Below the pieces are notes generated by a model. It did not search any database and had not been told where the DNA came from. It worked only from the letters and a program-made list of their open reading frames with translations. From Eledone cirrhosa (lineage: Eukaryota): DNA of 64,000 nucleotides. The position numbers were made by a program, and so were the translations under genes. Of this stretch, positions 1 to 46,524 are shown one piece after another (positions within the stretch are counted from its first letter, which is position 1; each line of letters begins with the position of its first letter). The stretch is taken from positions 94,798,001 to 94,862,000 of the forward strand of contig OZ024743.1 in assembly GCA_964016885.1 (NCBI GenBank), written 5' to 3'.

Positions 1-102
1 TATTCACACGGTCAAAGAAATAACTGTATAAAGTAGGCCTAATTAAAATATATCAAACAGAACACACCCAAAATAACATTACCCGTATAATAAATGCTGA
101 AA

Positions 103-133
<31 letters not shown>

Positions 134-619
134 CTTCTTCTTCTTCTTCTTCTTCTTGAACCCTCCAATATTGAACTAGTTCTTTATTTATTGACCTCAA
201 AATGATGAAAGCAAAGTTAACCTCATCAGGATTTGAACTCAGAGCACAAAGTGTCGGAATGAGTGATGCAAAGCATTCTATTCGACGTTCAATTCACCGC
301 GTTTAGTTGAACCGCTGATCAGCAAAGCGTTAATTGAAGATTTTCTCAGGAGGCTCAGGACGTATCATGGATAATTTGTGAGAAGGTATTTGAGTATCTT
401 CTCCACGCGTGGATTCTGGAAATATAAGTCTTGAGTAAAGTAAAAGCAATTAAAGGTACATACATCAAATTTAAATACAGTAGTACAACCCCATCATCTT
501 GTGACAATAGGAATGTATTTGAGAGATCAGGGGAGGGCTGGTTGAACTGTAGCCAAGAGCCAACAATATTTTAAATAGCCCCAAACATAAATAAACGTTA
601 ACTTTATAGATTAATACAA

Positions 620-1440
620 AGTACGCTTTTCTTAGCCATTAATTTTACTTCCTTTGCAACAACAGTTGCTACAGTTCCCTCGGTTTGTCCAGTCTAGATA
701 TTAGTCATGAGATCACTACCAAATATTTTGCTCTCTTTCAAGATCGAATGAAACTTCTTACTCCTCTCATGTTTTTCAACGAGTTTCAACATCCAGTCGT
801 TTGTTGCTCCAAGATATTTAGCCAGTCTAATTGTAGTAGTTTTGTAAGACAGTTCAAATTGCTTCGGACTCATTGAGTTCTGGGAAGGTAAAGACAATCC
901 ACATCTGCCTTTGAGTGCCAATTCTCTTTATTTCACTGAAATTCCAGTTCAACACATTGAAGCGATAATTAACAACTGGAATTGTCATGTGCATTTAGCT
1001 CAGATTTCAGAACTGCTCGTTTTCTCCTATAACATTCTTTCCTTATATTCTCTTTCATGATTGCATGCTGAATGTCGGAGCCTTCATTTATACCTAGGTA
1101 TTTATAGGTTTGTTTCTGCTCAAGTTCGTTTATAACTGCTCCAACACCCAATTCAACTTATCAAACCCAACATCCAGGCACATTTATCAAACCCAAATTC
1201 CATCTCGGTGTAATCACTGAATATTTTCACAGTACGTAAAAGGACTTCAAGCTCATCATTGTCTTCGCCATATAGTTTTAGCTAATCCATATACAATAAA
1301 TGGCTTATTTTCCTGTCGTCAATTTTATATCGATAATTTTTTCTGTTAAGTCCCATTGTAAGGGATATACAAATTATTAGAGGTGAAAGTGAGTCACCTT
1401 GGAAAATGCCACAGTCGATGCTAATATTGCTTGAAATAAC
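620..1440 (-). mobile_element. Decayed non-LTR retrotransposon RT fragment (R4/Dong-like); duplicate at ~33930-34795
   Basis: Motifs GIFQGDSLSPL, KISHLLYMD, TYKYLGI..., ECYRR..VLKSELNA, interrupted by stops and frameshifts. Confidence 0.75.
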
Positions 1441-1641
1441 ATGTTGTTTCAGAAAGTTAGAAATTATTGGAGAAAACTGATGAGTAGATGGAGGGAAGTC
1501 ATCGATAATGATGTGAATTATATAGAGGGCTAATTTTTAATAAAATGTGAAATTTGATGACTTGTTTTTCTGACCTAAATTTCGGACATTACTTATGGGA
1601 TGACCTGATAAATGAGGGTAACGTCTTCTTCCTCTTTCTGT

Positions 1642-1794
<153 letters not shown>

Positions 1795-1859
1795 CTCTAA
1801 ACAAATGACTTCTTTTTCTCTCTCTATTCGCTTGACGCCCTCGCTCTCTCTATATAGAT

Positions 1860-2030
1860 TAGGGTGACGTCGCAACTTTCTGTCTATCTACCTCTTTCTG
1901 TCACCTCGAAAGCACACAACGTTCGCTTTTCTATCTCTATATACATATCTCTCACTGGGCACTCCCCCTCTATATACACAGTGAGCGTGACGGACGGACC
2001 GACGAACAGACAGTGCTCTTATAATATAGA
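1860..2030 (-). mobile_element. Possible 5' end of a non-autonomous Helitron; duplicate at ~35230-35400
   Basis: Minus strand begins TCTATATTATAAGAG followed by short GTCT/GTCC repeats, like the other Helitron 5' ends here. No 3' end was identified. Confidence 0.35.
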
Positions 2031-2039
2031 TTGGGGAAT

Positions 2040-3580
2040 TTTCTTTTCAATCTATTTTTTCAGAAATCATCATTATTATTGATTTCTTTATTAGCCACAC
2101 AGGACTCACATTAAGAAAAAAATAAAGACAGTACAGGACGGTACAGTGTAGGGTTTTTTCGTGTAAAATAAAATTTATAACAGAGACTAAAAAATAAACA
2201 ATTAAATAATGAAACAACAAATTCCTCAAAAGTGGGGAGACCTCTGACTGTCACTCGTAGAGAAAGCCCACAAAAAGCCTCGGTCACCCTGACTGCTAGG
2301 GCAAGTGCCCTCTCCCAGCTGTCCTCCTTCAATCTACAGACGTATACTCAAGGCAGCCCATTTATTCGGACCATGATCGCCACTTACACCCACCTTTCAA
2401 CAAACTGGTTGGAAGGAAGCATTTCTCTCTCCACCCTGATTTTCTCTTCAAGTGAAATCGGAAAAAGATAATCAGAGCTTCACCGAAGAGAAAAGTTCTG
2501 GTCTTCAACCCTTTCAAACGCGTCCACCACACAACCTCTTTTACCATAACCAGCAGGCAGATGAAAACTTTCCTCTAAAGGAAGGCGGGTGAGCGATCTA
2601 CACAAAAGATTGTCGATAGTCGCATCCTTCCACACATGACAGCAGGTGTTCGACATAAACCCACTGGTCAGCAATACTCGAACACTCGATGGGTGCGTGC
2701 AGGACGATTTAGTCGTCCTGCGTGCATCTCAGAGAGGCCCGACTCACGGAACTTCCATTCCTGTAGGGTTTATTTCAAACTGGCAAAGCTCCACGGTAGC
2801 ACTGGCAGGCCAGGGATTTCTGGAAGTTATCCATGAACCCTAGACCGAAAGTCCTCTGAAAAAGAGTGGCTAGTTTATTTTTCCTCAACGCCCAGAATCA
2901 CCCCGAGAACGTCGTCGCTCTTACCATCCACGACAACATCCACCTTATGCGATACATCATAGAAAGTGTGGCTAAGAAACCTGGCACGAGTGGGGCCCTG
3001 ATTAATTTAGATTAGTCGAAAGCTTCGATAGGGTCGACCATCGCTACTACGCGGCAATCCTCAAAGTAGTTGACTTCGGACCCGTTTTCAGGGGCTGGAT
3101 CGCTGTAATGTACTGCGACATATGGTCTGTGGTTAGAGTGAACGGTCACCTTACGGAATCGTTCAACATCATGCATTCGGTCCACCAAGGTTGTTCTCTT
3201 TCGTCACTTTTGTATGTATTGACTCTTGAGCCATTACTACACAAATTGGAGACGTCACAGGGTATCCTGCGCGAACTAGGATGTGGGAGATCTGTGTCAA
3301 CATATGCCGACGACGTCATCGTAGTGGTGTCGAACACCAAACAAATTGAGTTGATCAGAATCACTCTCAAGGAGTAAGAAGCGGTAACAGGAGCAAAAAT
3401 GAACCAAGAAAGGTCGCTGGGTCTTTCTGTAGACTTGTCCCTGCAGCTCGGCATTTGCAGGGACAGGTCTACACCGTTTAACAGCATCATTGGACGCTGG
3501 CCGAACAGACAGGTTGAATTGTTTAGTGTTTGATTTGGTCCAGACCTCCCTATGAACAAAACTCGGGGCGAGGTAATGCC
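2040..3580. mobile_element. Tx1/L1-like LINE relic with internal inversion (3' end on minus 2040-2930, RT on plus 2930-3580); duplicate at ~35410-36950
   Basis: Plus strand: LD*SKA.DRVDH, HQGCSLSSLLYVL, TYADD. Minus strand: L1/Tx1-type C-terminus MVKEVVWWTR...FFRFHLKRK and a 3' UTR. Confidence 0.75.
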
Positions 3581-3879
3581 TATATAGTCGACTACTTTGA
3601 ATTATGGACAACCTATACTAGACGTATCTATTTCTCTACAGAATATCTAGATACGATCTGGATGACCCGGTGCGGTTTGTCTGTCTTCACAATGGCACAT
3701 TTGGGAAATCCAGTCAGTACCTGTCAGACAGCTGGAAGCGACTGAGTATGTTAGCGTGGTATTTACACCTCCTCCCCTATCTGCTAGTACCACACAGTCC
3801 CAGCCTGTATCCAAGATACCGTTCCAGTCCCCCATGACTCTAAAGAGCGGAATGCTCCTAGAAATGTTTCAATGCGCTT

Positions 3880-4255
3880 GAAGAAATCAGACCGTCCTAC
3901 TCATGTGGGGCTTAGACTGCCACAAGCCTGAAGACATACTCTTCATTGCTAGTCACGATCAGCACTACCAACGTATCTTCTAGATGTAGGAATATGATTT
4001 GTATCGCGAGATCCAGGCCTTTCCGAAACAACACAGCTTGGAGCTGCGTAAACTTCGTAGCCACCGAAAATGGGTGTAAAAGTTGGTGCGTCGAAAATTC
4101 TGGTGTTGCTGATAACCACCACATCTGTATTTAGTGAACTGAGGTCGTTGAGCTGGTGACCCTGCTTCCAAGATGACCTTAGGCCACGTAGCTCCGTGCA
4201 TTTACATGGCTTATCCTGAATGAAGTCATGTTCGATGAAGAGGAAGAAAAGTAGG
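3880..4255 (-). mobile_element. LINE ORF2 N-terminal AP-endonuclease fragment (Tx1/L1-like); duplicate at ~37250-37620
   Basis: ...LRGLRS...LNDLSSLNTDVVVISNTR and FRLVAV resemble the APE N-terminus. Confidence 0.55.
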
Positions 4256-4490
4256 AAAGGCAATCTGTCCAGCGATTCTTTCCTGATACATTCTAACCAC
4301 ATGCCCATACTATCGTAGCTGTGATCTCTGAATTGGAGAAGTAGCAGCTCTACCTGGAGTGACTCTCTCATCTCCGAGCTACACACTTTATCGAGTAACG
4401 TTACTCTAAAGACCCTTCGGAGGAACCTCATTTCGGTTATTGCTCAAGATTCATGGCCATAGATAAGGGTTGGCACGAATACCGTGAATA
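4255..4490 (-). mobile_element. RTE-clade LINE fragment (post-RT region); duplicate at ~37620-37850
   Basis: EMRFLRRVFRVTLLDKV.S.EMRESLQVE is typical of RTE ORFs and homologous to 19440-19700. Confidence 0.7.
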
Positions 4491-4572
4491 TATATTATCC
4501 AATATCAATGATATCAATATAAATAGTATCAATATATGATTTAATATGAATATCAATATATTATCCAATACC

Positions 4573-4790
4573 AATAATTGTTTCTGATTTATGCACAAGG
4601 CTAACCATTTTGAGGGAGAGAAAGTCGATTAAATCGACCCCAGTGCGTTACTGGTACTTTATGTTATCGACCTCGTAAAGACAATCGTCAAAGCTAACCT
4701 CCGTGGGATTTGAAATCAGAACGTAAAGGGACGTAACTAAATGCTACAATGCATTTTGTCCGAATCTCTAGGGATTTTACCAATCCAGTG
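4573..4790 (-). mobile_element. tRNA-derived SINE; duplicate at ~37935-38155
   Basis: Same family as 5170-5363, with the central gtcgattaaatcgacccc segment. Confidence 0.75.
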
Positions 4791-5169
4791 CCCTCTACTT
4801 TATAAAAAAAAGACAAATACTTAACTCCTGAAATCTAATATCATGTAATAATGATATTTTAGTCCAAGGTTTGAATTTAAATTTGAATACTTTAATAAAG
4901 TCGGTATTTGGTGGGTTTGTGTTTTAGGGTTAACCCTTTTGATATCAACCCGCCTGAAACCGCCCATTGTTCTATGATACAAAACTGCCTGTATTAAAAC
5001 CTTGCATTATAATTTTATTTAAGAACATTTTGTTAAATGATGTTCTAAATATCAGATTAATAATAAGGTAAAATATTTTACTAAATTTCTTCATTTTTTA
5101 AAATTTCAAAATTAATTGAAATTTGTCCGGTGCTCTACCAATTCTGCCAACCCACCGCCGTTTCAATAT

Positions 5170-5363
5170 CAATAATTGTTTCTACTTTTGGCACAACGCA
5201 AGCAATTACCGCAGTGTATTATTTGTACTTTATTTTATCGACCCCGTAAGGATGAAAGGCAAAGTCAACCTCCGCGGGATTTGAATTCAGACCATAAAGG
5301 GCCGTAACATTTTGCTGCAAAGCATGGCGTCCGACCCTCTACCGATACTGCCAATCCACCGCC
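5170..5363 (-). mobile_element. tRNA-derived SINE, the dominant family here; duplicate at ~38592-38783
   Basis: Minus strand starts GGCGGTGGATTGGCAG (A-box-like), has a B-box-like GAATTCAAATCC, and ends GTAGAAACAATTATT. More than 10 copies in the window. Confidence 0.85.
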
Positions 5364-6465
5364 GTTTCAATATCAATAATACCGCTATATCAACGCCGTC
5401 TGAAGAAGGATTATCCAGAAGACGCAGGATTATATATATATTTTATTATTTCATGCAAAGCCAAACATTTTAACAGACACTTTTGAGTGCACCAGATTCC
5501 CAGTAGAAACAGTAGAAAGCGGTTAACTTCACCCTAACCGGTGGATCTTCAATCGAGCGTGGGTAGGTAAACGTAAGTGTTTCTATATTCATTTTTTACT
5601 ATAAAAAATAATGGTGATGTATTATTTATTATCTGCTTCCGGAATAGCTATTTATTTGTTTGTTTGTTCATTTATTAATGTCCTTAGTTTTACACAACTT
5701 CTTGTTTGACGTATTTTTTCTTTAACGTTCATGAGCCACTAAATCCTGTTCCATATAACTGTTTTGTCTTTTTCGCCTATGCTCCTACGGTTTTTACACA
5801 CACCTCACTCGTTTTTAACACCTCATGTAATTGTATGCATGAATTAAATTAATGACTAATTTACTTCTAGTTGAGGTTTGGATCAAATATTCAGCATGTC
5901 TTCAAAGGAAAGATGCATAAAAAAAAGAAAAAGCTATATTTTCTATAGTAAAACGGCACATGTTTCTAAATGTACTCTCATACTTCAATGTTTACATCAA
6001 TAGTAAGTTGCTGAATATCCTCGTCAACTGGGAATAATTACATTAATTTTCCCAAATTGTTGAATGATAGTCTCAATGGTCTTAGAAAATAAGAAAAAAA
6101 GAGTTAGTAGCTAGGTGTTAACTCTATTACGTGATCAATTATCATTTAAATCCCCCAAAAGCCTTGTGTGGTATGTTTCCGAATAAAAACACAAATCACA
6201 TGCCACTAAATGTGCTTTTTATGAATTTTCAAACGTCACAAACACAAAGGTGTATTTTCAATGTTTCTTTTCATTACTCTGGCATAAATCTATAAATGTC
6301 TCACTTGATTCTTTTCATTTTAACTGACTCAGGGTTGTATATGAACGATAATTTTGTCATATGTTAATTTGAAACGCCTGTGACACGCAAGTTCAGCAAC
6401 AAACAAAGATTCAGTGCCAAATGTCCTTTCTAACTACTAAGATATAAAAATATATCATTTAATTA

Positions 6466-6633
6466 CTGTATTTCCCGGCGCTGAAGACGCTTCGTCTTCG
6501 AGAAGGCACCCTAATTTTGACAACCAAAAATTTGAAAAAAATAATATACAACCTTCGGCCTCCAGGACGCATGGTAGATTTTTGAGACTTATTTTAGGAA
6601 AAAAAGTACTGTCTTCGACGCCGGGAAGTACAG
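6466..6633. mobile_element. MITE of the Tc1/mariner-pogo type with TA target-site duplication; duplicate at 39890-40057
   Basis: TIRs CTGTATTTCCCGGCG...GAAGAC / GTCTTC...CGCCGGGAAGTACAG, flanked by TA on both sides. Confidence 0.85.
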
Positions 6634-8147
6634 TATTTAATTATTTAATTATTATTAAGGACAGACCATAACAAGGAATAACATAGTGTATGCTATTTTA
6701 CATTTTCCTGGTCTGTAAAATGCAGCTTCCGGTCAAAGGTAAGTAATATCAAATCCATATCATGGACCCTTAACTCCTAATGGAGTCGTCGAGGTGCTGG
6801 CGTGACTTACGACATGACTCAAGTATTTAAATCTGGCGGAGTCCATCTCTGTTTATGTCTGAACACAACTGAGTTCTTCCAGAGAAAGAAAAGGAGAGGG
6901 CGAGAGAGGGGAGAGGGTATAAAGGTAAAATCGACCTCAGTATTGGACTAGACATGAAACAAAGTATTGGTGGTGGTAGTGGCTAGGGATATGTGCAACT
7001 CAAATACTTCCAAGGCGGTGTCCCAGCATAACTGCAGTAAAATAATTGAAACAAGTAAAAGAATAGATGAATAAAAGAATAACTAACAAGAGGACAGCGT
7101 TTCTCTCCCCGGCTTCTTAAACATCACCCCCCCCCCCACCTTTTGGTAGGCAGTGAAATGTAACTGCCCCCAGTGTCCTTTCTTAAGTAAGAACGCCAGT
7201 CAAGGGAGGCAAAATATTTTGTTACATAACTATGCAATGTTCTGTTGTATTGTGTTCCTGAAAATTAACCAATGTTCAGAATTAAGCTTTTACAAGTAAA
7301 TTTTGGCCACAAATGTCCTGCCTTTGTTACCGACTTCATTTTGCTATTTATGAAGTTGTTATTGTGTGTGTGTGCGTGTATGTGTGTGTGTGTGTGTACG
7401 TGTGCGCGCGTGTGTGTGTGTATTTACCCATAACAGTCGGCGCTATCTGTATATGTCACGTAACATGTTCCATCGATTGACTACCACGCATCGCAAATCG
7501 ATAATAGACAGACAAACAGCTAGTGCTTATCACATTCTTGAGTAATGTACTGTTCTTCAGGGCGTATAAGGCTTATAAATATTAGTTTCTCTCTTGGTGT
7601 GGTGATCCTAGCTATTTCTTGTATTAGGTTACGCTTTTGTTTTTCTTGATGACTTAATTCTCTATAGATCTTCTTTTTTATGTTTAGAATTAATGTTCGT
7701 TTTAGCCTATCTGCTTGTTTTTTGGTGAGTTGTAATCTTCTAACGTCGGTATTGATGGTGTTGGCATTGATATTCTGGACGAGGCACACTGCTTTATGAA
7801 GCATAGTTGTCGAGATGTTATGGTTTTTCGTAGACAACAGAACATGGTGGTTTTCAGTATCTTGTTAGCCTGGCTAAGGCTTACGATATTTCGTTTCTGA
7901 ATTTGTTTAGCAAGATTCTTTATCTGAAATCGTGTGTTGAAACCGATATTGTTATACTTTGGGAGGGTCATGTTGCCAATAAGAAACACACGCACCAGTT
8001 GCTTTCACTTCAATTTATTATATATTTATAAATTTATAAATTTACAAATCTACAAATTTATAAATTTCGGGTTGGTTGGTTGGTTCCACAACCAGATAGT
8101 TGTTTATATATAGTCATAGTCCTTTCGTCACACACTCTGTGACCTCT

Positions 8148-11122
8148 GATTGTAGACAGAAAACTGCATACGGTGGGTGAAGTGTTGTATGTGTCTCTCT
8201 AGTTCTTCGGGGTTGCACATGCGGGACACATTTCTCATCACCCGTACCAAATACGCAATCAGTATGTTGATTTTGGTATGGTCCGAAATGGCCGAGTTTC
8301 GGTGGATCAGATGTTTGGAAGTCATGGGTTTGGCATAATGGGAATGGAGGATTTGTTTTTGGTTGTTAATGGTATCTAACCAGAGCTCTGTGTCTAGTAC
8401 AGGTAATCGATGGTTGGGGTGTCTACTTGGGTAGTCTATAGTAACTCTAATGCTCTGGTGGATGGAGTTTGCTATTTGCTGGATGCTTTCCATTGTGTTT
8501 TTCTCTAGTTCCTGACTGTTCTCTAGTGGGGGTGTCTTAACTACGATGTTTATATCATCTACGTAGCGGGAGTACATTATCAGGGTTAAGCTGTCTTCTA
8601 ATTGTTCTTTAAGTTTAAGTTTAAGTCTACTGTCCCACCATACCATGAATAAGTTAGCTATGTCGCCTGCAATGCTAACACCAATGGCTGCTCCTTCCTC
8701 TTGGGCATATGCTTTTCCATTAAATTTGAACATATGTTCCTTAAAGGTTAATTTTATGCTGGCCCCTACCGCATGTGCAATCATTTTCTTCAGTTCATCG
8801 TGGTTTTCGGGTGTCCGTATGGCTCTGGTCCACCCGTTCCATCTATCTGTGTGGGTTTTCTTGGTCATTGAGGTAATGGTAGGTGGTCTGCCTCTTGCTG
8901 GTCTTGTAGGGCACAGGTTGCTAAGGTCATATGTGTCTAGGTAACTATTACTATGGGTAAGCTTAAGTAGAAGTCCCAGCTCACTGGTATCAATCCCACG
9001 GAACTCAACCTTGCTCTCGCTGATCATTTCTACGCATTTCTCCACAGCAAAATCCACGTCAATAGATGGATACAGGGACACAACATCCATACTGCCTATT
9101 ATGCAGTTTGTTAGGTCCCCAGATCGGTTACCCACGCCGATTCTGCTGAGGAGGTCCTCCGTGCTGTCACATACATCTGGGGACATCTCAATGATGGGGC
9201 GTATGATCAGGGAGAGGAAGTAGGACAGTCTGTAGTTACTAGCAATGTTAGCTCCACAGACCGGCCGTGTTGGTGGTCCCGCGACAGGGTCACAGCCCGT
9301 TTTATGGTCTTTTCGAAGCCCATACAACGCCGGCACGTCATTGTTCCAGGCCTGGAAGTTGTTGGCAGTCCTTTTGTTGGGCTGCATTATATTCGTCCAC
9401 ATCACCATATGGGCATTGAGGGCTTTTTCTCTATCCTCATGCTCCTGTGGTGTTACCTCTCTTGTGTTAGTGATGTGGGGTTGCATTGCCTGGATGTAGT
9501 TTGGCAGGCTGTCAACCGACATTCTGCCAGACTTGTCTGTTGGAAAGCATGCTATCTCTCCATTACGTGAGCGCTGCATGAGCTTACGCAAGCAATTTGC
9601 AGGTTTTTCTCCCAGTTGCTGGGCCTCTATTCTATTATGCTTCTTGCTATACTGTTCTATAATATTTCTAAGTTCGGATCTAGCTATACTAAATTGTGCT
9701 TCTGTTTGTTCATCAACCTGCGACGGCAACTGCGTGCGTTTGTTAAATGGTAAAGTCGTGGCGTGGACTCGTCGCAGGTCGAATGATTTATCGGAGGGAT
9801 TATAAAACAGAGAGTTCCAGGCTGCTGCTTTATGTGTACTAGTGCTATTGTTATTGTTAGTTGTGTTGTTTCTATTTCTATTTCCACCAACAGCCTCATG
9901 GTTGTTTCTATGTCTCTCATAATTACTCCTGTCTCTTTCCACTGGCTCAATGTTGTTATCTACCCTATTTTGTGTGTCTGTGTGTTCGTCTTGGTTATTC
10001 TCTTTGTCCTTAGTCTCCCTTCTCCTTTTAATCCTATTACTTTCCCTTATTTCTGTGATTTCTGTGCTACTGTCATTACTTGTTTTCTGTGTCTGTGTGT
10101 TTGTTAAGATTGTGGTGGTGGTGAGAGGCATTGAATGCGTGTGTGTTGTTGTTGTTGATGTGTGCTGTTGTTGATGTGTGTTGTTGTTGTCTCCGTGTGT
10201 GTTATCGTTGTTGTGTGTGTTGTTATTGTTGTTTGTGTCTGCCTGTCTGTTGTTGTTGTTTCTGGGTATGTTGTTATTGTTGTTGTTGTTGATGTGTGTG
10301 TTGTTGTTATTGTTGTTTGTGTCTGTGTGTCTGTTGTTGTTGGGATGTGTGTTGTATATGTGTGTGCGTATATTGTTGCTTTTGTTTTTGATGCTCCAGC
10401 GTAGATTTGTAAATGATTTTTCTATTTCTGACAGACAACTAATCATATTTACCTTCTTGAATGTCGCAAATTTCGGCGGCAAACATAACACAGACATTTC
10501 ATCATTATCTATTTTTGCGTTCCCATATATGTTGGTGTTTTTGTTGTTGAACTCTTCTGATAATGAGGTGTCGGCCATGTTGATACCGTCAATTTTGTCG
10601 GGATATCTATTGGTATACTCTATAGTATCCTGATTTAGCTTTGCCTGTTTAAGCCACTTTAGTTTCCTGTTAAAGTGTTTATCACATTCTTGAGTAATGT
10701 ACTGTTCTTCAGGGCGTATAAGGCTTATAAATATTAGTTTCTCTCTTGGTGTGGTGATCCTAGCTATTTCTTGTATTAGGTTACGCTTTTGTTTTTCTTG
10801 ATGACTTAATTCTCTATAGATCTTCGTTTTTATGTTTAGAATTAATGTTCGTTTTAGCCTATCTGCTTGTTTTTTTGGTGAGTTGTAATCTTCTAACGTC
10901 GGTATTGATGGTGTTCGTGTAGATTCTGGACGAGGCACACTGCTTTATGAAGCATAGTTGTCGAGATGTTATGGTTTTTCGTAGACAACAGAACATGGTG
11001 GTTTTCAGTATCTTGTTAGCCTTGCTAAGGCTTACGATATTTCGTTTCTGAATTTGTTTAGCAAGATTCTTTATCTGAAATCGTGTGTTGAAACCGATAT
11101 TGTTATACTTTGGGAGGGTCAT
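8148..11122 (-). pseudogene. PLE ORF (N-terminal domain + RT), frameshifted near 10870 and lacking the endonuclease
   Basis: Starts MTLPKYNNIGFNTRF at 11122. An extra T in a T-run shifts into the 936-aa ORF, which carries an Asn/Thr-rich microsatellite insert. It is cut at ~8147 by fusion to the next pLTR. Confidence 0.88.
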
Positions 11123-11262
11123 GTTGCCAATAAGAAACATACGCACCAGTTGCTTTCACTTCAATTTATTATATATTTATAAATTTATAAATTTACAAAT
11201 CTACAAATTTATAAATTTCTGATTGGTTGGTTGGTTCCACAACCAGATAGTTGTTTATATAT

Positions 11263-11307
11263 AGTCATAGTCCTTTCGTCACACACTCTGTGACCTCTTC
11301 AGTGACT
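11263..11307 (-). ncRNA. Minimal type I hammerhead ribozyme in a PLE pLTR
   Basis: AGUCA-CUGAAGA-G-GUCACA(GAGUG)UGUGAC-GAAA-GGAC-UA-UGACU. Stems I and II pair perfectly, stem III is very short, and the cleavage triplet is CUA. Confidence 0.8.
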
Positions 11308-11511
11308 GGGGATTCCTTTCTTTGTTTCTGTGCCTTTCCTTTCTTCTGTCCTACGCCATTTTGTTTCTGTGTGTGTGTTGTGTGCTCAGTTTGCGCATGC
11401 GCCACATCCGGGTGTCTGTGTGTGTTTGTGTTCATTTATCTATTTGTTTATTTATTTACATGTTATTGGTTGGTTGTTTGTTCTATGTGTGTGTGTGTTT
11501 TCATTTTGTCC

Positions 11512-13354
11512 TTAATTGTAAGTTGTGATGTTGCTGTTCCACTCATATTTTCTATTTAATTTTGGTTGTAATTCTTTTATGTTTATTGCCTCTGTAATTT
11601 GTCTAAACATTGCATCTTTTCTGTGTGTAGATTCTATTTTTATTTCTATGTTCTCTAATTTACCCTTGTGTTCTATCTTAGCATGTTGGTAGAGTACAGA
11701 TGATTCTTTATTATCTTGAAGGTCTCGCCAGGGTTCATTTATCCGTTCCCCTATACTACGAGCTGTCTCACCTATGTACACTATATTTTTGTTTCTACAT
11801 TGTCCTTCAGTACATCTTATGCTATACACTACATTTCTAGTTTTACAGTTAATATGGGGGCTTATTTTACAGGTTATACATTTCTTATCTATACATGAGG
11901 GTCTTTGGAACGGGTATGTCTTGCTAATAAGTGTTTTTACGGAGGTACCTGGTCTTTCTACTATCTTAATATTGAGTTTATGTTTATTTAGGGCCCTTCT
12001 AAATTTGTAGGCTAGTTCGCCTCTAGGGGTTGTGTCGATGAACATTACACTCTGGTATTTATTGCTATCATACCATGAGTTTATTCTATTGGCCTTGTTC
12101 CTAGTTCTTTCTATTCTATTCCAAAATTTGCTCCTATACAAGGGGCAGGTCCCATTTATGTCATTATTTACCATTTTTTCCCATTTGGTTCTGGCTCCTC
12201 TATACACTCTGATTCTATCTCTCTGATTGTAGACAGAGAACTGCATACGGTGGGTGAAGTGTTGTATGTGTCTCTCTAGTTCTTCGGGGTTGCACATGCG
12301 GGACACATTTCTCATCACCCGTACCAAATACGCAATCAGTATGTTGATTTTGGTATGGTCCGAAATGGCCGAGTTTCGGTGGATCAGATGTTTGGAAGTC
12401 ATGGGTTTGGCATAATGGGAATGGAGGATTTGTTTTTGGTTGTTAATGGTATCTAACCAGAGCTCTGTCTAGTACAGGTAATCGATGGTTGGGGTGTCTA
12501 CTTGGGTAGTCTATAGTAACTCTAATGCTCTGGTGGATGGAGTTTGCTATTTGCTGGATGCTTTCCATTGTGTTTTTCTCTAGTTCCTGACTGTTCTCTA
12601 GTGGGGGTGTCTTAACTACGATGTTTATATCATCTACGTAGCGGGAGTACATTATCAGGGTTAAGCTGTCTTCTAATTGTTCTTTAAGTTTAAGTCTACT
12701 GTCCCACCATACCATGAATAAGTTAGCTATGTCGCCTGCAATGCTAACACCAATGGCTGCTCCTTCCTCTTGGGCATATGCTTTTCCATTAAATTTGAAC
12801 ATATGTTCCTTAAGGGTTAATTTTATGCTGGCCCCTACCGCATGTGCAATCATTTTCTTCAGTTCATCGTGGTTTTCGGGTGTCCGTATGGCTCTGGTCC
12901 ACCCGTTCCATCTATCTGTGTGGGTTTTCTTGGTCATTGAGGTAATGGTAGGTGGTCTGCCTCTTGCTGGTCAGGTTGCTAAGGTCATATGTGTCTAGGT
13001 AACTATTACTATGGGTAAGCTTAAGTAGAAGTCCCAGCTCACTGGTATCAATCCCACAGAACTCAACCTTGCTCTCGCTGATCATTTCTACGCATTTCTC
13101 CACAGCAAAATCCACGTCAATAGATGGATACAGGGACACAACATCCATACTGCCTATTATGCAGTTTGTTAGGTCCCCAGATCGGTTACCCATGCCGATT
13201 CTGCTGAGGAGGTCCTCCGTGCTGTCACATACATCTGGGGACATCTCAATGATGGGGCGTATGATCAGGCAGAGGAAGTAGGACAGTCTGTAGTTACTAG
13301 CAATGTTAGCTCCACAGACTGGCCGTGTTGGTGGTCCCGCGACAGGGTCACAGC
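11512..13354 (-). pseudogene. 5'-truncated PLE ORF copy: RT C-terminal half + GIY-YIG endonuclease (frameshifted)
   Basis: ORFs 12912-13244, 12443-12937 and 11512-12402 are nearly identical to the 8148-9300 copy and extend through the GIY-YIG domain. Confidence 0.9.
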
Positions 13355-14049
13355 AAAAGGACTGCCAACAACTTCCAGGCCTGGAACAATGACGTGCCGG
13401 CGTTGTATGGGCTTCGAAAAGACCATAAAACGGGCTGTTTACTTAAAGGGAGATAATCTTTGAATATTTTCATATTTCATAAATTATTATTTTATGTCCT
13501 AGGTCGAAGGCAAATAATCGATCAAATAGTTTCGGTTACTCTCGGGTCCTTTTAGTTTACATATTGAGACCCCAACCCACCCTATTCATTTTGTAACGTA
13601 TGTGATTTCGGGTAATGTACTATTTCAGTCATATAAACGACAGGGGGGGATGGAACAGGAGCGGTCGGTATGGACACATTTGAAAAATTAACAAGCGGGG
13701 TGTCGGGGAGGGATTGTTCGAGACCCGTGAGTAGGTGAATATTAACATAGTAACGATATCTCGGTAGCGCTAGTTTACTTAAAGGGAGATAATCTTTGAA
13801 CATTTTCATATATAATTTATTATTTAGGATGCTTTCCCCAATCATATGTTAAAGGGAGATAATCGGTAAAAGGTATCGGTTAAAAGAAATTTCAGAGTAT
13901 ATCAATTTAAGCCAAATTGAATTTAAATCACCTATATCAAGCTAAATCAAATCAAATCAATATCATTATCTATATTCAGAATTGGTTTGATCTTTTTAAT
14001 AAAATTCTTTTCTTCTATGAATTTGTTTTGCGAGATTTCTTATCTTGTA

Positions 14050-15626: not shown

Positions 15627-15826
15627 TTAAAATCTATAATGACAGTATCCACGAATACATCTTTTTGTAATGGGGTCAAACCTTCTACCATAGCCACAGG
15701 AAGCCATAATATATCTGCCATATGCACAAATAGCATAATGAGAACATATTTGTAAGCAAGGCTGTTTGTCTCTCGATTTACAATCACATCCTTTAGGAAC
15801 GACACATTTTTTGTTGATGTAACATT
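15627..15826 (-). CDS. Tyrosinase coding exon 4 (chitin-binding-like Cys module); not in the ORF track
   Basis: Polypyrimidine tract and ACAG| acceptor, in phase with exon 3. Encodes KCYINKKCVVPKGCDCKSRDKQPCLQICSHYAICAYGRYIMASCGYGRRFDPITKRCIRGYCHYRF*. Confidence 0.85.
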
Positions 15827-18800
15827 CTGTAATAGAGAAAGAAGAAAGGTTAGCTGAAACAAGACAAATTTACGAAATAGGAAATATATATGTATAGAAT
15901 TAATAATCATTTATAAACCAAATGCTTTGGTGCTTATCGTCTCAAATTTACAAGTTGCGTGAAGCTGAATAGTCCTACAGCAAATATGTGATTAGATGGC
16001 AGATACAACCTGAAACTAGCAACATTTGTGTGTTTTTAAGCATACACACGCACTATATGCAAATGAGCATCGCCAACCAAAATTTAATAGGCAAACAGCA
16101 TATAAGCTTTTAGTTTATTCTTGTCTTATGACAGTGTATATAAAAGCATATCCTTATGTTTATGTATAATAATTTTAAAAGGTGTGAACATGTCACAGTT
16201 ATCTCAGCAGTGGTGAGAATGCCAGGTAGATATTTATGCATTTTATCCTTCAACAGTAACATATATTTACTTGCTACTGAGACAAAATCTGCTAAAACCT
16301 ATATAGTGTTTGCATGTCAATAATCCGCTAGTGAAAGGGAGATAATTAGGTAGCAATATCAGCGTTTTTCGCCACAGGGTTGTATATGTTTAATATATAA
16401 TAAACACAAATCTCGCCTTGAAATTTTCAAAAAGTAGGGATCATGTCACAGGTATCTTAGTATTGGTGAGAATGCAAGATAGCTATTTCCGGATTGTTGT
16501 CCTTCATCAGTGACATTTACTCACTCGCTACAGAGACAAAATGGGTTAAATCTCCTATGGTTTTTGCGTATGAGACATTAAATGGAGATGCTCATTTGCA
16601 TATAGTGTGAACATTACTGTTGAAAGGGAGATAACTATGTTGTACTAACACACACATTGTTCTTTGTCTTGTATGTTGAACCCATAACTTGTAGTAAAGG
16701 CATGGTAGTGTCATACAGCGTTTCTTGGACGTTTTTGAAACCTGATGGAGTCTACTCCACCCAAGGGCTAATTACAGTCAACTTCTTCCAGGGAGGGCGA
16801 GAGAGAGTGATAGAGTGAAGAAGTGAGTAAGAAATACAGAGGTAAAAAAATACGACACCAGTATTGGACTGGTATCTTTTATTATCGATGACGAATCGAT
16901 GAAAGGCCTAGTTGACCTCAGCAAGATTTGAACTGACAGAGTAGAGAGCCGGAATGAAGACTCCAAAGCATTCTATCTGACGTTCTAAAGACTTTGTTAA
17001 TTCGCCGCCTATTTATCTTGTAGGATACATTATATATTGTAACGAAATGTGAACCCATGAAAAACTAATGCTGTATGTCTGTTTTGGTATACGTCCTCAA
17101 ATATAAACATTCTTCACTACTCTAGTTACAATAACCTATACTGACCTATATTTGTTTATTTTAACCATGATATGGTCACATACACCCCCCTCCTTTGATA
17201 AACAGTTCTTCACACATCGACTACCCCTACCTTTATTAGACTACAACCATCACCATCTACCATATCCATAAGAGCTACTATCACATACAAATATACATAT
17301 GAGTGCACATTACACTGCTCTGAAAAGTTTAACATTATAAAAATAAGTGTTTCTACTTTTGGCACACGGCCAGCAATTACCCCAGTGCATTACTGGTACT
17401 TTATTTTATCGACCCCGTAAGGATGAAAGGCAAAGTTAACATCGGCTGGATTTGAACTCTGACCGTAAAGGGACGTAACTATGCTGGAAAGCATGTCCAA
17501 CCCTCCACCGATACTGCACATTGACCGCCCAATTCACTGCCAAAAAATAAAGGGTTCTAATTTAAGTAGAAAATCAGCAATTTGGGGAAGAGGAAAATCG
17601 ATTAAATCGACCCCAGTACTTTCCTGGTACTTAATTATATCGGCTTCTGGAAGGATGAAGGGTAAAGTTGACTTCAACAAGATTTGAAACGAGAACGTAA
17701 AGAACCGGAACAAGTACATGGCACTTTGTCCGGTACTTTAACCATTCTACCAATCAAAACATACATAATTACTTACTTTGAGATGTTGTTGTTGTTGGTA
17801 CTAGTGTTGTTGTTGTTGTCGGTACTGGTGTTGTTGTTGTTGTCGGTACTGGTGTTGTCGTTGTTGTTGTTGTTGTCGGGGTTGTTCTAGTTGTGGTTGT
17901 TGTTGTTGTTCGAACTGGTGTGGTCGTTGTTGTAGTCACATTACTGCTGGTAAATGGCCACCGGCTGTCATCACAGTGGAAAACAATTGGAATATTCTGG
18001 TGCTTCAGTTTCGGTCGAATCTGGTTGTTATAATCCCAGACCTTCATGTAAGTATCTGCGAGGGTTTTACCGTAGAAGGCAGTATCGTTACGAGTTATGT
18101 TCAAAAGTCCTATACATTCTGTGTATCTTGGTGGGTTGGAACCTGGAACTAAGCAAGATGGCCGACATATTCTTCCACATTGTTCCGTAACTGTTAGAAA
18201 TACGAGAGCAGCTCCTTTTTCGGGGTCTCTGATACCGATATAAGCTAGATCTGATGATACAGCTAATCTACGGTCCACTACCACCATTTCTTCATAATTT
18301 CCAAAATAATTGATGCCACTGGCTTGAACATTCACTCTTCCTGCTGGTCCACAACACTTATTCATCCGACAAGTAGAATTACTGGACGAGGAATTTTTGG
18401 ATAGACTGTTGTCGTATATATCATTCAATAAGTTTGGTTGACCATTTACGATTGGGAAATTTCCAAATCTCATCGTCTCGTAAGGTCGTTCGTAAATTAT
18501 TTCGATCGGAATAAATGCCCATTCTTTTAAATCACACACACGGTTGATACAAAACATATTTTGATAGGGAATGAGAGTATTACAACGAGTTGTTGATTTA
18601 GATTTTGTTACACATCTTCCATTTTCGCATGTTAAGTATCGAGGATTACAAAGATTTGGATTGTAAGTACAATTTCCAAGTAAGTAATCATAATCATATC
18701 TGTAAATACCAGTGTAACTTTGAGTTACTTTTAATGCTTCTTCGACTGTTAAATTCATAATGCCAATACTTTGGTTGGGAGCATAAATATCTAAACCAAA

Positions 18801-19698
18801 ATCTGTAGGATAATCTGTTGCAGGATCGATGTTGTTTTTCTTTTGGTTTTCATTGAAACGTGTGTGAACAAGTTCTACATAACTGTGAAGTAGAAAGAAG
18901 AAAGGATCCATGGGTGCAGATGGAATCATAGACATATGTCCTCCAACAGAAACGTGCATAGAATTATGCATAAGTTCAAAGTTATAGCGTCGGTCAGCGT
19001 TTGGTTCTGATATTTCTTCGAGTTTCGTTCGAGTGAGAACATCTTCGATATTACGATGTGTTGGCAAAGTTGTGCTGAAACCTCCATTCCTTACTAGATG
19101 ACCAGATGGTGTGGTCCAATTAGCAAACGGTCCACGATTTACAAATCCATTGACTGTTCCCATGAACGTGTCCGACCAGATAATGGAATCTCGAGGATTA
19201 GAAAGAGAAGCATCAAGAGTTGGATCCCAAAATGGAATTGCTACAGTTGGTACTTTTGTACGAAGAGCATCTTCCATCCTGAAATTTAAAAATAAAAACC
19301 ACATTAACATATTTCTAATGACATATTTAATGAATGAAATATTACGAGGGATTTATTTAAATTATCAATTATTTTAATTATTAAGATCGTATTTGTTTCA
19401 AAACTTATCTAACGGGCTTAAATAAAATTTATATAAAATTCTCCGAATTGAGAGATCACAGCTCCGATACTATAGGCATGTGGAAGGAATGTCTCAGGAA
19501 AGAATCGCTGGACAGATTTTACGGCCAAAACCAACCGGCAGGAGGCCCAGGAGTAGACCCGAGCATGATGGTCGGACCACATCCATGAGCCTGGCTGGTT
19601 TCGCTTGAGGATCCAGTCGGATCAGTTGGAGATGGTTGCTTCTGACAGGACCGACTGGAATGAGTGTGTGACGACTCTGCCTTCACGACCCTCTCAGA

Positions 19699-19744
<46 letters not shown>

Positions 19745-20882
19745 TGTTTGTGTATGTTGTGTTATGTTGACCTAGGATTTTGGATATAAAATAGTAGTAA
19801 TCTTCGTTTTTTTTCATTAATGCTTTATTTTAACATAGATGGAGGAAAAGACTATGAAAGGGGACCAAAAGGGAAATGAAAAGAAGAAAAAAAGAAGAAT
19901 CAAGCAACGAAAGAAAGGGAAAATGGGGGACAGATACTACACCCCAGTTTGAGCAGTGCCTCAGCTGCGCCCTGTGGACAAAATGACAAAGGCATATACC
20001 ACGGAGAATGGCTAGAGATACCCGCTACAACAGCCATCCCATCTCACGGGGCTTCCTCCTCGAGCTAGCTGCTGTCTTTCCGATAAGCATTGTGGGGACC
20101 ACGGACATCAGAGGTCTCGACGGACACCGGTACAACGAAGAAGCGGTTGGTCAGGACCCGGTATTAAACTACAATTATATTTCATGCCTTGCGGTATTCA
20201 TTTTGGCTATCTTCTCTCTGAGTTCAAATCCCGCCGAGGTCAACTTTGCCTTTCATCCATTCAAGGTCGAAAATAGTACCAGTCTAGTACTGGGATCGAT
20301 ACTTCCTCTATATATCTTTCTCACTTTCATTCTCTCACTCTATCTTTCTCTGGAAGAAATCTGCTTTATTCAGAACTAGGGTGGAGACGGGCTCTGTCAG
20401 GTTTTAAAAAATACCATAGAATCACTGTATGTCAATATGGGGCTCCTACAAGTCCCACACAAGAACAACTGTTAAAACAGCAAAATGCCGACAATATTCA
20501 TGGAATAATGGCGAAAAATCAGCGCAAGAGTAGCTGTTAAAACATGGTATTTAACGGCATTTTGGTGTTAACAGCTATTCTTGCGATGAGTTATATTTTT
20601 CATTATTCTATGAATTCTAATATTAAAGTTATTAGCATAATATTACAGTAGAAAAAATAAGTAATTGGAAAATACTGAATTATTTACATTTTTAAATAAA
20701 CTCTGTGCCAGGTGAGGAATACAGGACCATTGTGAGCATTTCTGGCAGTTGCACCTGTATGGAGGAAGGCGATAGCATCGTAAACATTTGGTTCCATGCT
20801 CTGTAAGATAAAGAAAGAGATATAAGACATTACAATCATTGAAACAAAGTATGGAGGCAGGTGTATATATATACACACACAC

Positions 20883-20929
<47 letters not shown>

Positions 20930-22509
20930 ATTACTTCTCTCGTAAGTGTACATATATATGAATATATAGTGAATTCTTTCTTTTTAAAACTTGTATCACT
21001 ATCAACTTATACACAACAGCAACACGTCTCTTCTCTTTGCTCTTCAACCTCTTAAAACGTATTGAAGCACAACTAGAGTGTCCTGCCGAGATTTCTTAAC
21101 TCCACCTTTTTTTTATCATATTTCTATTGAAATACATTGCAAATAATTTTCAATGAATTTATGAAAATATATTTTTTTAAATGTTGGAATTCAGTAAAAT
21201 AACGTTTTCATTAGTAAGCTGGTTACATAAAATTATGATGGAATGTTTCTATATAATTATGAATACTTTAAAGCGGACAATTTTATATCATAGAATAGGA
21301 GCTGTTTTAAGTATCAAAAGGGTTAAATGCTATAATTATACTTCTTCTAAATGATGCAAATGATGATATTGTACAAGTAAACACTTGATCAAATATAAAG
21401 ACTGTCTGAACAGAAGGTTATTGAGTATATAGCTCTGTAGCCGGCACGTTACAATGCAAATGATCCAGTAACTCACATACTTTACTAGCGTGTATTAAAT
21501 CGATCTGCTATGAATAATCCACTTCCACTCACGAAAGTATCTATATGTAGATAATATACTAGATTTCTCACTTCGCAGCATCCTCAACATCTGCTGGAGT
21601 GATAGAGCGATTTTGTTACCAGCATTGAAGTTCTTGAAGAGACAGAGAGCACCAATGCATGTTTCCCGAATAGAAAATCATCATCGCTGCATGGCGAACT
21701 CTTCATTTTCCACTGAAACAGAGGGATCCGCAGCAAATGTACAAGGGTTCTCTAAAGAAATCTCTTTAAGCATGTCATATTGATCACCACCAGAGGTATG
21801 ATATGTCCTCTGATCAGGTGATCTGGTGACATACCATCTGTCAATTTCCTCCTTCGAGAATGAATGGAGGACTGTTGATGAAGACAAAAGTCCGGGGAAG
21901 AAATGTAGTATGGTAACACTGAAACCAGAACAAAATTAGACTTACTCTTGCTTTAGTCGTGTTTGCCTATCTTACGTTTTTCTCGTCAGTTACCAGCGAG
22001 CCTACGATAGATGTGGACAGCCCCTTTCATAAATCTTCGTTAACGAAGTAAAGTCATGATACTAGTTTAGTAAAATATCAAAGTCTGTCAGTACTCTGAA
22101 CTTCTCTCAATAATATTCATATAAAAAAATAGAACCTTACCGTATCTTGTTTTAGAAGATGAATACTACGGTGGAAATCATATCTTTCTTGTTCACTGAG
22201 TTGTCTATATTCCTTCCTTACTCGGAGCATTATCATAGGATTTGGTTGTGATGTTTTTGGTTTATCGGTTGGTAGATTATAATTTAGATAGTTCGTTGTC
22301 CAATTAGGACATATTTTCGCCATTTGGAGCTGACCGATGCAATATTTCCATATATCGGCCTTCTTTTCAATTGGTGGATTTGTCGATTTGCATACATTCT
22401 CAAAACAGTCTGGAACATAGCTACCTATTTCTGGAACATAATACTGTATATCTGACTTCACGTTAACGAAAGCCAGCAATATGATGAATGCTAGGTACAG
22501 ACGATTCAT
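15627..22509 (-). CDS. Secreted tyrosinase-like protein with C-terminal chitin-binding (CBM14/peritrophin-A-like) module; join(22509-22141, 20800-20688, 19278-17777, 15826-15627), 727 aa
   Basis: All introns are GT-AG with consistent phases (0, 2, 1); the 2184 nt give 728 codons including the stop. Signal peptide MNRLYLAFIILLAFVNVKS. CuA: FLHTG...AHNGPVFLTWHR. CuB: FELMHNSMHVSVGG...DPFFFLLH. Confidence 0.9.
16471..16517 (-). ncRNA. Minimal hammerhead ribozyme in the last tyrosinase intron (sense strand); degenerate tandem copy at ~16218-16263
   Basis: AAUGUCA-CUGAUGA-A-GGA(CAACAA)UCC-G-GAAA-UAGCUA-UC-UUGCAUU. Stem III is palindromic and stem I has one mismatch. The repeat period is about 253 bp. 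Confidence 0.7.
17343..17755 (-). mobile_element. Two adjacent tRNA-derived SINE copies in the last tyrosinase intron
   Basis: Match to the SINE family at 5170 (tttctacttttggcac...ggatttgaactc). Confidence 0.8.
17777..17945 (-). repeat. Coding Thr-rich mucin-like repeat (PVPTTTTT, 24-bp units)
   Basis: Translation TTTTTTPVRTTT...PVPTTTTTPVPTTTTTLVPTTTT. Confidence 0.9.
17777..19278 (-). CDS. Tyrosinase coding exon 3 (CuB, Cys-rich domain, Thr-rich linker)
   Basis: Acceptor TTTCAG|G completes an ATG. Contains IPFWDPTLD and the CuB motif. Consensus donor CAAA|GTAAGT at 17777/17776. Confidence 0.92.
19440..19743 (+). mobile_element. RTE LINE 3' end with (TAA)n tail
   Basis: Encodes ...GHVEGM...GRRPRSRP.., homologous to 4255-4490 and 52310-52500, and ends in a (TAA)n run. 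Confidence 0.7.
20185..20300 (+). mobile_element. SINE fragment; similar copy at ~22875-22975
   Basis: ctgagttcaaatcccgccgaggtcaactttgcctttcatcc (B-box region). Confidence 0.7.
20688..20800 (-). CDS. Tyrosinase coding exon 2 (CuA site)
   Basis: Acceptor CTTACAG|AGC and donor AAAAT|GTAAAT; encodes SMEPNVYDAIAFLHTGATARNAHNGPVFLTWHRVYLK. Confidence 0.93.
22141..22509 (-). CDS. Tyrosinase coding exon 1 (signal peptide, RVRKEYRQLS motif)
   Basis: Acceptor TTTTCAG|CA ATG and donor ACG|GTAAGG. RVRKEYRQLSEQER.DF..I..LK is the classic tyrosinase domain start. Confidence 0.92.
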
Positions 22510-22702
22510 TGCTGAAAATATAAGAAAATGTAAAACATCATTCAGACGAAAGCATGGCTGTTAAGGAGTCTACTTTGCAACCACGTAGTTCTAGGCTCTG
22601 TCACTCTGTGTGGTGCTTCGAGCAAGTGTTTTCTACTAGTGAAATTTGGTAGACAGAAATTACAGTGTGTCTGTCTGTCTATATGTTTGTTTGTTTGTGT
22701 GT

Positions 22703-33337: not shown

Positions 33338-40939
<7,602 letters not shown>

Positions 40940-44157: not shown

Positions 44158-44350
44158 ATAATTGTTTCTACTTTTGGCACAAGGCCAGCAATTATCCCAG
44201 TGTACTACTGGTACTTTATTTTATCGACCCCGTAAGGATGAAAGGCAAGGTTAACATCGGCGGGATTTGAACTCAGACCATAAAGGGCCGTAACTCTTTT
44301 CTGAAAAGCATCGCGTCCGACCCTCTACCGATACTGCCAATCCACCGCCC
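44158..44350 (-). mobile_element. tRNA-derived SINE
   Basis: Family match. Confidence 0.85.
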
Positions 44351-46300: not shown

Positions 46301-46524
46301 CTTTCATATAACGTATTTCTTTTCATGTTATTGTTATCATTACTGTCATCACTATTTTACACATCCACTTACTCACCATTACCGTAAATAAGTGCAAAAT
46401 ACGGGTACTGATAACAGTAGAAGTGGTGGTGGTAGTTGAAGTTATAATTGTTTCTACTTTTGGCACAATAAAGTACCAGTAATACACTAAGTCTATTTTA
46501 AACCGGTCGAGGTCGTGTCCACTT

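Follow-up and report, generated by a model that had tools for sequence, protein, structure and literature searches.

A Tyrosinase Gene of Eledone cirrhosa With a Predicted CBM14-Fold C-Terminal Module, a Layout Shared by Annotated Mollusc Proteins

Introduction

The locus examined here raises the question of where its tyrosinase ends, either at an in-frame stop just within the third intron or beyond that intron in a cysteine-rich exon, and of what the additional module would do if the longer protein is made. The window (the whole stretch of 64,000 nucleotides of Eledone cirrhosa DNA that was analyzed) consists of AT-rich and repeat-rich animal DNA and contains one tyrosinase gene, the nearest relatives of which are octopod proteins.

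Gene Structure and Splice Sites

Joining the coding exons on the minus strand yields a protein of 727 aa with GT-AG ends at all introns (Table 1); without the last splice, the frame reaches a stop at 663 aa. The first-pass annotation had proposed that a perfect donor and an in-phase acceptor add an exon with ten cysteines to the protein. The GTAAGT donor at 17776 and the acceptor at 15827 do join in phase to give the 727-aa protein with its ten-cysteine end, and the exon contains exactly 10 Cys in the C-x5-C-x9-C-x12-C-x4-C spacing that had been claimed. The donor is perfect on its intron side, but position -1 is A and not G. Read against the general splice-site and branch-point consensus, the exon 4 acceptor (15826) has the top pyrimidine tract, with 18 of 20 positions, among the candidate acceptors listed for 17776-13500. 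An alternative in-frame AG at 15853, upstream of the CTAAC, is a possible second acceptor that would add 9 aa. At the other end of the gene, a pyrimidine-rich AG acceptor lies on the minus strand at 22512-22520, only 2 nt ahead of the start codon, and a non-coding upstream exon is therefore likely.

Table 1. Features of the tyrosinase gene, in positions of the window.
Feature	Position	Strand	Phase	Basis
Coding exon 1: signal-peptide-like start, four-Cys N-terminal region, start of tyrosinase domain; aa 1-123	22141..22509	-	0	
Coding exon 2: CuA H137, H146, H155	20688..20800	-	2	PF00264, E 4.9e-7
Coding exon 3: CuB site, small Cys knot, predicted beta-sandwich domain, Thr-rich linker	17777..19278	-	1	
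CuB site H265, H269, H292	18885..18968	-		Sequence matching
Middle domain, ~200 aa, predicted beta-sandwich	17955..18578	-		Strands in model of O. vulgaris orthologue
Thr/Pro-rich mucin-like linker, 55 aa, 67% Thr	17778..17942	-		Composition
Intron 3, 1950 nt, GT-AG, contains repeat fragments	15827..17776	-	1	
Branch-point-like CTAAC, 23-27 nt upstream of exon 4, before pyrimidine tract	15849..15853	-		
Coding exon 4: ten-Cys extended CBM14/peritrophin-A-fold module (predicted) and stop; 200 nt	15627..15826	-		Pfam, fold matches, P0003

Evidence for Use of the Last Exon

Exon 4 had been described as hidden, a description that does not hold, as annotated Octopus, Argonauta and gastropod proteins already contain it. 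In tblastn searches each of the four exons is hit, in the correct order, by P0003, an annotated protein of O. vulgaris whose aa 1-112 match exon 1 (E 1e-22), and exon 4 was therefore hidden from the open reading frame track only. Residues 644-710 of the same protein match exon 4 at 61% identity (E 8e-22), and the exon is also matched by O. sinensis, both Argonauta, and Patella proteins. All 10 Cys align between the octopods and the limpet Patella. Across the six-frame translation of the window, exon 4 is the single place with the strict Cys pattern, and 60 shuffled windows contain none. Exon 4 is real coding sequence belonging to the gene, and is almost certainly spliced into the transcript.

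The locus is covered by four sequencing runs from one study, with the data type unrecorded. Runs X1-X3 show even coverage over exons and introns alike. Run X4 contains spliced sequence, since a loose end in it at 19278 agrees with the last part of exon 2 at 25 of 29 positions. Contig depth in X4 is 2.8-13 thousand in the exon 4 bins and 0.85-10.7 thousand in the exon 3 bins, compared with 20-36 where the sequence of intron 3 is unique and 5-12 just past the donor, a comparison that amounts to a weak hint, contig depth not being a measure of RNA level. The deep X4 contigs may be derived from a paralogue, because their letters differ from those of the window (19 of 546 in exon 3, and the replacements I714T and R720P in exon 4).

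It is extremely unlikely that exon 4 goes unused in this copy and that translation terminates just within intron 3, at the in-frame stop. The joint between exons 3 and 4 (17777/15826) is absent among the 15 joints listed, with 242 more beyond the listing and the adjacent Thr-repeat skipped as a repeat, and AATAAA words are present in intron 3, both of which would suit such an ending. Set against this are an exon that is intact and closely resembles the C-terminus of annotated orthologues, the drop in X4 contig depth right after the donor, and the occurrence of several homologues that end in S/R/G-K immediately after the linker, as read-through of a phase-1 donor would produce.

Catalytic Domain

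The identification of the gene product as a tyrosinase is borne out by PF00264, which matches exon 2 as well as exon 3 (E 2.4e-16 in the latter, which is 71% identical to O. vulgaris P0003). The catalytic site looks intact, with all six copper histidines present (Table 1). When the alpha-class tyrosinase criteria given in the available text of PMC3658974 are applied to the copper motifs, the Phe and the placeholder residue, the protein is found to have the alpha-subclass motifs (CuA H-(n)-H-x8-H, CuB H-x3-H-(n)-H) and a Phe at -4 of the third His at both sites (F151, F288). The small placeholder residue over CuA is Ile; I279 and N266 occupy the positions of V218 and N205 in the B. megaterium tyrosinase (56 versus 56 residues, read as ungapped). 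Four positions past the last CuB His, where the alpha class has Asp, the protein has Glu (E296), as do P0003-P0005. Residues 1-18 resemble a signal peptide, as judged by eye and by hydropathy, with a 19-residue hydropathy peak of 1.57 at the N-terminus and none above 1.03 in exons 3 and 4. We infer both secretion and enzyme activity, and the protein is very probably an active secreted oxidase.

Middle Domain and Linker

The layout first proposed for the protein, tyrosinase, linker and chitin-binding module, leaves out a segment of ~240 aa that lies after the catalytic domain and before the linker. The tyrosinase domain is followed by a four-Cys knot (residues 364-383) and by a middle domain that is predicted to be a beta-sandwich. 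Searches with the middle domain returned no Pfam family and no Atlas match, and its structural matches are Ig/pilin-like at Z 7.0 or below, obtained with a 710-aa model in which the domain was not folded alone. A middle-domain profile matches 156 of 174 proteins in a set that was gathered with related queries. Many molluscan-type tyrosinases terminate with this domain. The linker that follows it here was claimed to be Thr-rich, as its composition confirms (67% Thr across 55 aa), and it may be O-glycosylated.

C-Terminal Module

The cysteines encoded by exon 4 stand at positions 663, 669, 675, 677, 685, 689, 695, 705, 718, and 723; the spacings of the six-Cys CBM14 motif (x5, x9, x12, x4) are present, and four extra Cys lie in an N-terminal extension. 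On exon 4 the Pfam profile PF01607 (CBM_14) scores 22.3 bits versus a cut-off of 22.1 (E 1.5e-4; profile positions 14-45 of 53), a marginal result 0.2 bits above the gathering cut-off. Homologues attain this cut-off in 0 of 10 cases in one set and in 6 of 17 in another. A structural model of the module (pLDDT 76) has five strands. CBM14-fold proteins occupy the top 12 ranks in Foldseek, in which the module model gave no row at E <=0.001, and they make up the first 8 of 12 rows among the VIA structural matches, all with Z < 8, including EHEP (Z 6.7, rmsd 2.5, 57 aligned), Der p 23 (Z 5.8) and the CBM14 domain of CHIT1 (Z 4.8). The earlier assignment to CBM14/peritrophin-A is upheld by the marginal Pfam pass together with CBM14 folds as the top structural matches, and the predicted fold is that of CBM14, with a three-stranded and a two-stranded beta element.

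Putative Ligand of the Module

Most characterized CBM14 domains bind chitin, and we lean slightly toward chitin or chitosan as the ligand of this one. The same preponderance speaks against an alternative that we consider rather unlikely, namely that the CBM14-fold module binds a non-chitin ligand, such as polyphenols or catechol- or Tyr-rich matrix proteins, in the manner of EHEP, so that the enzyme would be docked on its own substrate or product and not on a polysaccharide.

In human chitotriosidase (CHIT1), P451, L454 and W465 weigh most in chitin binding according to the available text of PMC5459812. Mapped by the identical 12-residue Cys spacing, these residues correspond to G706, R709 and R720 in the window protein; the CHIT1-type Pro/Leu/Trp platform is absent, and none of the 16 exact-spacing modules has Trp at the W465 site. 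The absence of this platform favors a non-chitin ligand, as does the basic character of the module (13 K+R versus 3 D+E). Furthermore, the two best VIA matches, EHEP and Der p 23, are both CBM14-fold proteins reported to lack chitin binding in the part of PMC10619976 that was available, and EHEP, described in the same text as a molluscan CBM14-fold polyphenol binder, is the best match by VIA and also by PDB sequence. The sequence match to EHEP is weak, however (E 0.07), the CBM14 rows differ from one another in Z by no more than about 2, and the module of the chiton member, Leptochiton, retains a Trp at the chitotriosidase position, two residues past the fifth Cys.

CBM14 binders differ in their binding residues (PMC10619976, available text), and the missing Trp therefore does not exclude chitin binding. 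If the module does bind chitin or chitosan, it would do so with a different surface from the Trp platform of chitotriosidase, the top candidate being an aromatic hairpin, Y/F-x-x-C-x-Y-G-x-Y/F/W, that is conserved around the third Cys in the subfamily. Among the 16 exact-spacing modules, the conserved aromatic sites are Y/F (16/16), Y (15/16), Y/F/W (16/16), and F/Y (16/16).

Related Proteins

A survey across molluscs, proposed in the first-pass annotation, returned named proteins with this layout from octopods, gastropods, bivalves, and chitons. The exact Cys spacing is present in 15 of the 27 homologues from the first two homology searches, with representatives in Octopus, Argonauta, Patella, Littorina, Babylonia, Gigantopelta, Bulinus, Biomphalaria, and Physella. 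A profile built from 15 seed modules detects the module in 27 of 156 proteins with the middle domain, and also in Mactra and Solemya (2 of 13 further proteins), while tyrosinase A of Leptochiton has a Thr linker and a divergent module that was recognized by eye and not by the profile. Both Pfam domains, tyrosinase and CBM14, are precomputed for two proteins.

The closest known systems are the octopod secreted tyrosinases, represented by O. vulgaris 'tyr-3' (P0003), O. sinensis 'tyr-1 isoform X3' (P0004), and Argonauta hians P0005 and P0006. These share 66-75% identity across the first 440 aa of exon 3, the Thr linker and the 10-Cys tail, and form one clade (SH-aLRT 100), whereas the N-terminal region has diverged (37-45%). 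Their tails fall below the Pfam cut-off, and the domain is therefore unnamed in their labels. More distant relatives include Patella caerulea P0009 (UniRef name 'Chitin-binding type-2 domain-containing'), Bulinus truncatus P0018 (PF00264 and PF01607 precomputed), Mactra P0175, Solemya P0176, and Leptochiton P0076. These gastropod, bivalve and chiton proteins likewise have a tyrosinase domain, a Cys knot, the middle domain, a low-complexity linker and an extended CBM14 module, but their identity is about 32% and their linkers are mostly rich in Pro or Gln and not Thr. An R-x-K-R-type site, absent from the window protein, precedes the catalytic domain in many gastropod, bivalve and chiton relatives. 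The tandem cluster of Argonauta argo, reported in the available text of PMC9635652 to comprise secreted alpha-type tandem genes with a homogenized second half, probably belongs to the same subfamily as the window protein; that text does not mention a chitin-binding domain, its lone mention of 'chitin' concerns BMSP/Pif, and the supplement text has none.

Outside this subfamily, human CHIT1 (GH18, hinge, CBM14) offers a comparable arrangement of an enzyme, a flexible linker and a terminal CBM14, with 12 residues between the fourth and fifth Cys in addition to the structural match given above. CHIT1 is a hydrolase, however, whereas the window protein is predicted to be an oxidase with an extra middle domain, and its module has 10 Cys, an N-terminal extension and replacements of the three main binding residues. 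Aplysia EHEP resembles the module as the best VIA match and as a molluscan CBM14 fold, but consists of three stand-alone tandem peritrophin-A domains that bind phlorotannin, with no enzyme domain (PMC10619976, available text). The nematode tyrosinase-ShKT proteins P0012, P0186, and P0187 are also secreted tyrosinases with a small Cys-rich C-terminal module, which in their case is ShK and not CBM14, and they show no match to the middle domain.

Distribution and Evolution

To place the module in the family, trees were computed from rows picked by a subfamily-built profile, with 17 rows dropped for a middle-domain score <120 bits. In FastTree all 28 module-bearing rows fall within one group of 79 of the 139 rows (support 0.957), and none is found among the 60 rows outside. 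An IQ-TREE analysis of 55 of these rows left the backbone open, with 10 changes compared to a shuffled mean of 17.9, indicating that the module is clustered without forming a clean clade. The simplest reading is a single origin of the fusion followed by repeated loss, which is only compatible with the trees because IQ-TREE left the backbone open.

The Leptochiton protein P0076 groups weakly with the octopod proteins (SH-aLRT 87) and is a natural control for binding. Two other proteins have tails of a different kind, fibronectin III and a likely membrane helix in P0085, and collagen repeats with an Ig domain in P0161; either real shuffling or model fusion is possible for both.

A more extended scenario appears unlikely. 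It holds that chitin-anchored tyrosinases are old and pan-molluscan, predating the split between chitons and conchiferans, that they were retained and amplified in tandem in the shell-less octopods with a Tyr-rich hairpin taking the place of the Trp, and that they are the missing oxidase patterning quinone tanning in the beak, sucker cuticle and stylet of cephalopods.

Tandem Copies and Repeats

Positions 1-7523 and 33338-40939 of the window are copies that are 96.7% alike, lie ~33 kb apart and flank the gene on both sides. If this pair marks a tandem unit, a sister tyrosinase would be expected beyond the left end of the window, an arrangement like that of the argonaut cluster; tblastn found no second tyrosinase copy within the window. 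Among the octopod relatives, P0003 and P0004 are 33% alike at the N-terminus and 96-100% alike from the CuB part onward, and A. hians P0005 and P0006 are 84% alike in the middle domain and 61% alike in the CuB part, patterns consistent with gene conversion between copies in tandem. Model P0007 of O. vulgaris comprises two tyrosinase copies and an exon-4-like stretch in another frame (window 15641-15805, E 3e-4), and probably arose when tandem copies were annotated as a fusion or with wrong splicing. The surrounding repeats include inverted copies at 59286-60979 and 62307-64000, 99.8% alike and with a retroelement-like open reading frame, as well as similar reverse-transcriptase-like frames, labeled by eye, at 7520-13442 and 44251-48003.

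Proposed Function

Our best reading, to which we assign about an even chance, is that the gene encodes a secreted tyrosinase, one of an old subfamily in molluscs, that is tethered to the matrix by binding of its CBM14-fold module to chitin or chitosan. The copper tyrosinase would be released into the extracellular space, where the module, on its flexible Thr-rich linker, would dock the enzyme on a matrix containing chitin or chitosan. Tyrosine or catechols within reach of the linker would then be oxidized, and the resulting quinones may cross-link and darken nearby matrix proteins. Because of the CBM14-fold tail and a layout that is shared across molluscs, the body-surface matrix that the enzyme would tan is likely also the one to which it is tethered.

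Published expression of relatives points to several tissues. The argonaut tandem tyrosinases show high expression in arms and mantle (PMC9635652, available text), but no argonaut tyrosinase was detected in the proteome of the eggcase, which contains chitosan, even though expression in the arms is high, according to the accessible portion of bioRxiv 2021.07.10.451900. A chiton tyrosinase of the same name as the Leptochiton protein is reported in larval photoreceptors in the available text of PMC4689004. Published expression in arms, mantle and larval photoreceptors gives no specific pointer to a role in beak or radula, and beak hardening is described in the available part of PMC9999432 as spontaneous or catechol oxidase-assisted, neither being validated.

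These expression sites (PMC9635652, bioRxiv 2021.07.10.451900, PMC4689004, each as available) would also suit an enzyme of ordinary epidermal pigmentation, the tail of which is structural or regulatory (serving folding, oligomerization, latency, or granule sorting) or is removed by cleavage at the linker. Such a role for the tail is quite unlikely in our estimation. Many relatives with the middle domain end directly after it (73 of 139 tree rows, within 20 aa), so that the tail is dispensable for the family, yet the retention in four classes of a long low-complexity spacer with a CBM-fold module would better fit a tether, and surface-type aromatic residues are conserved. Anchoring to a matrix remains our preferred reading.

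A paper on a Mytilus larval tyrosinase may, reportedly, mention a chitin-binding domain. No description of a tyrosinase-CBM14 fusion was found in the available portions of PMC8700984, PMC5105077, PMC4660305, PMC6368272, PMC3658974, PMC13425148, PMC10619976, PMC5459812, PMC9261976, PMC9999432, PMC5379566, PMC9283884, PMC4689004, PMC9635652, and bioRxiv 2021.07.10.451900, which makes for a weak claim of absence; the last of these terms tyrosinase a single-domain enzyme.

The gene itself is ordinary, its layout being already present in annotated mollusc proteins and its close orthologues having exon 4 annotated. The points that have been little described are the layout across the subfamily, the change in the binding surface and a middle domain that has no name. 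For the confinement of quinone tanning to the chitin-protein hard parts of molluscs, a tyrosinase with its own matrix anchor would be a concrete and testable candidate, with a 65-aa module that is easy to express.
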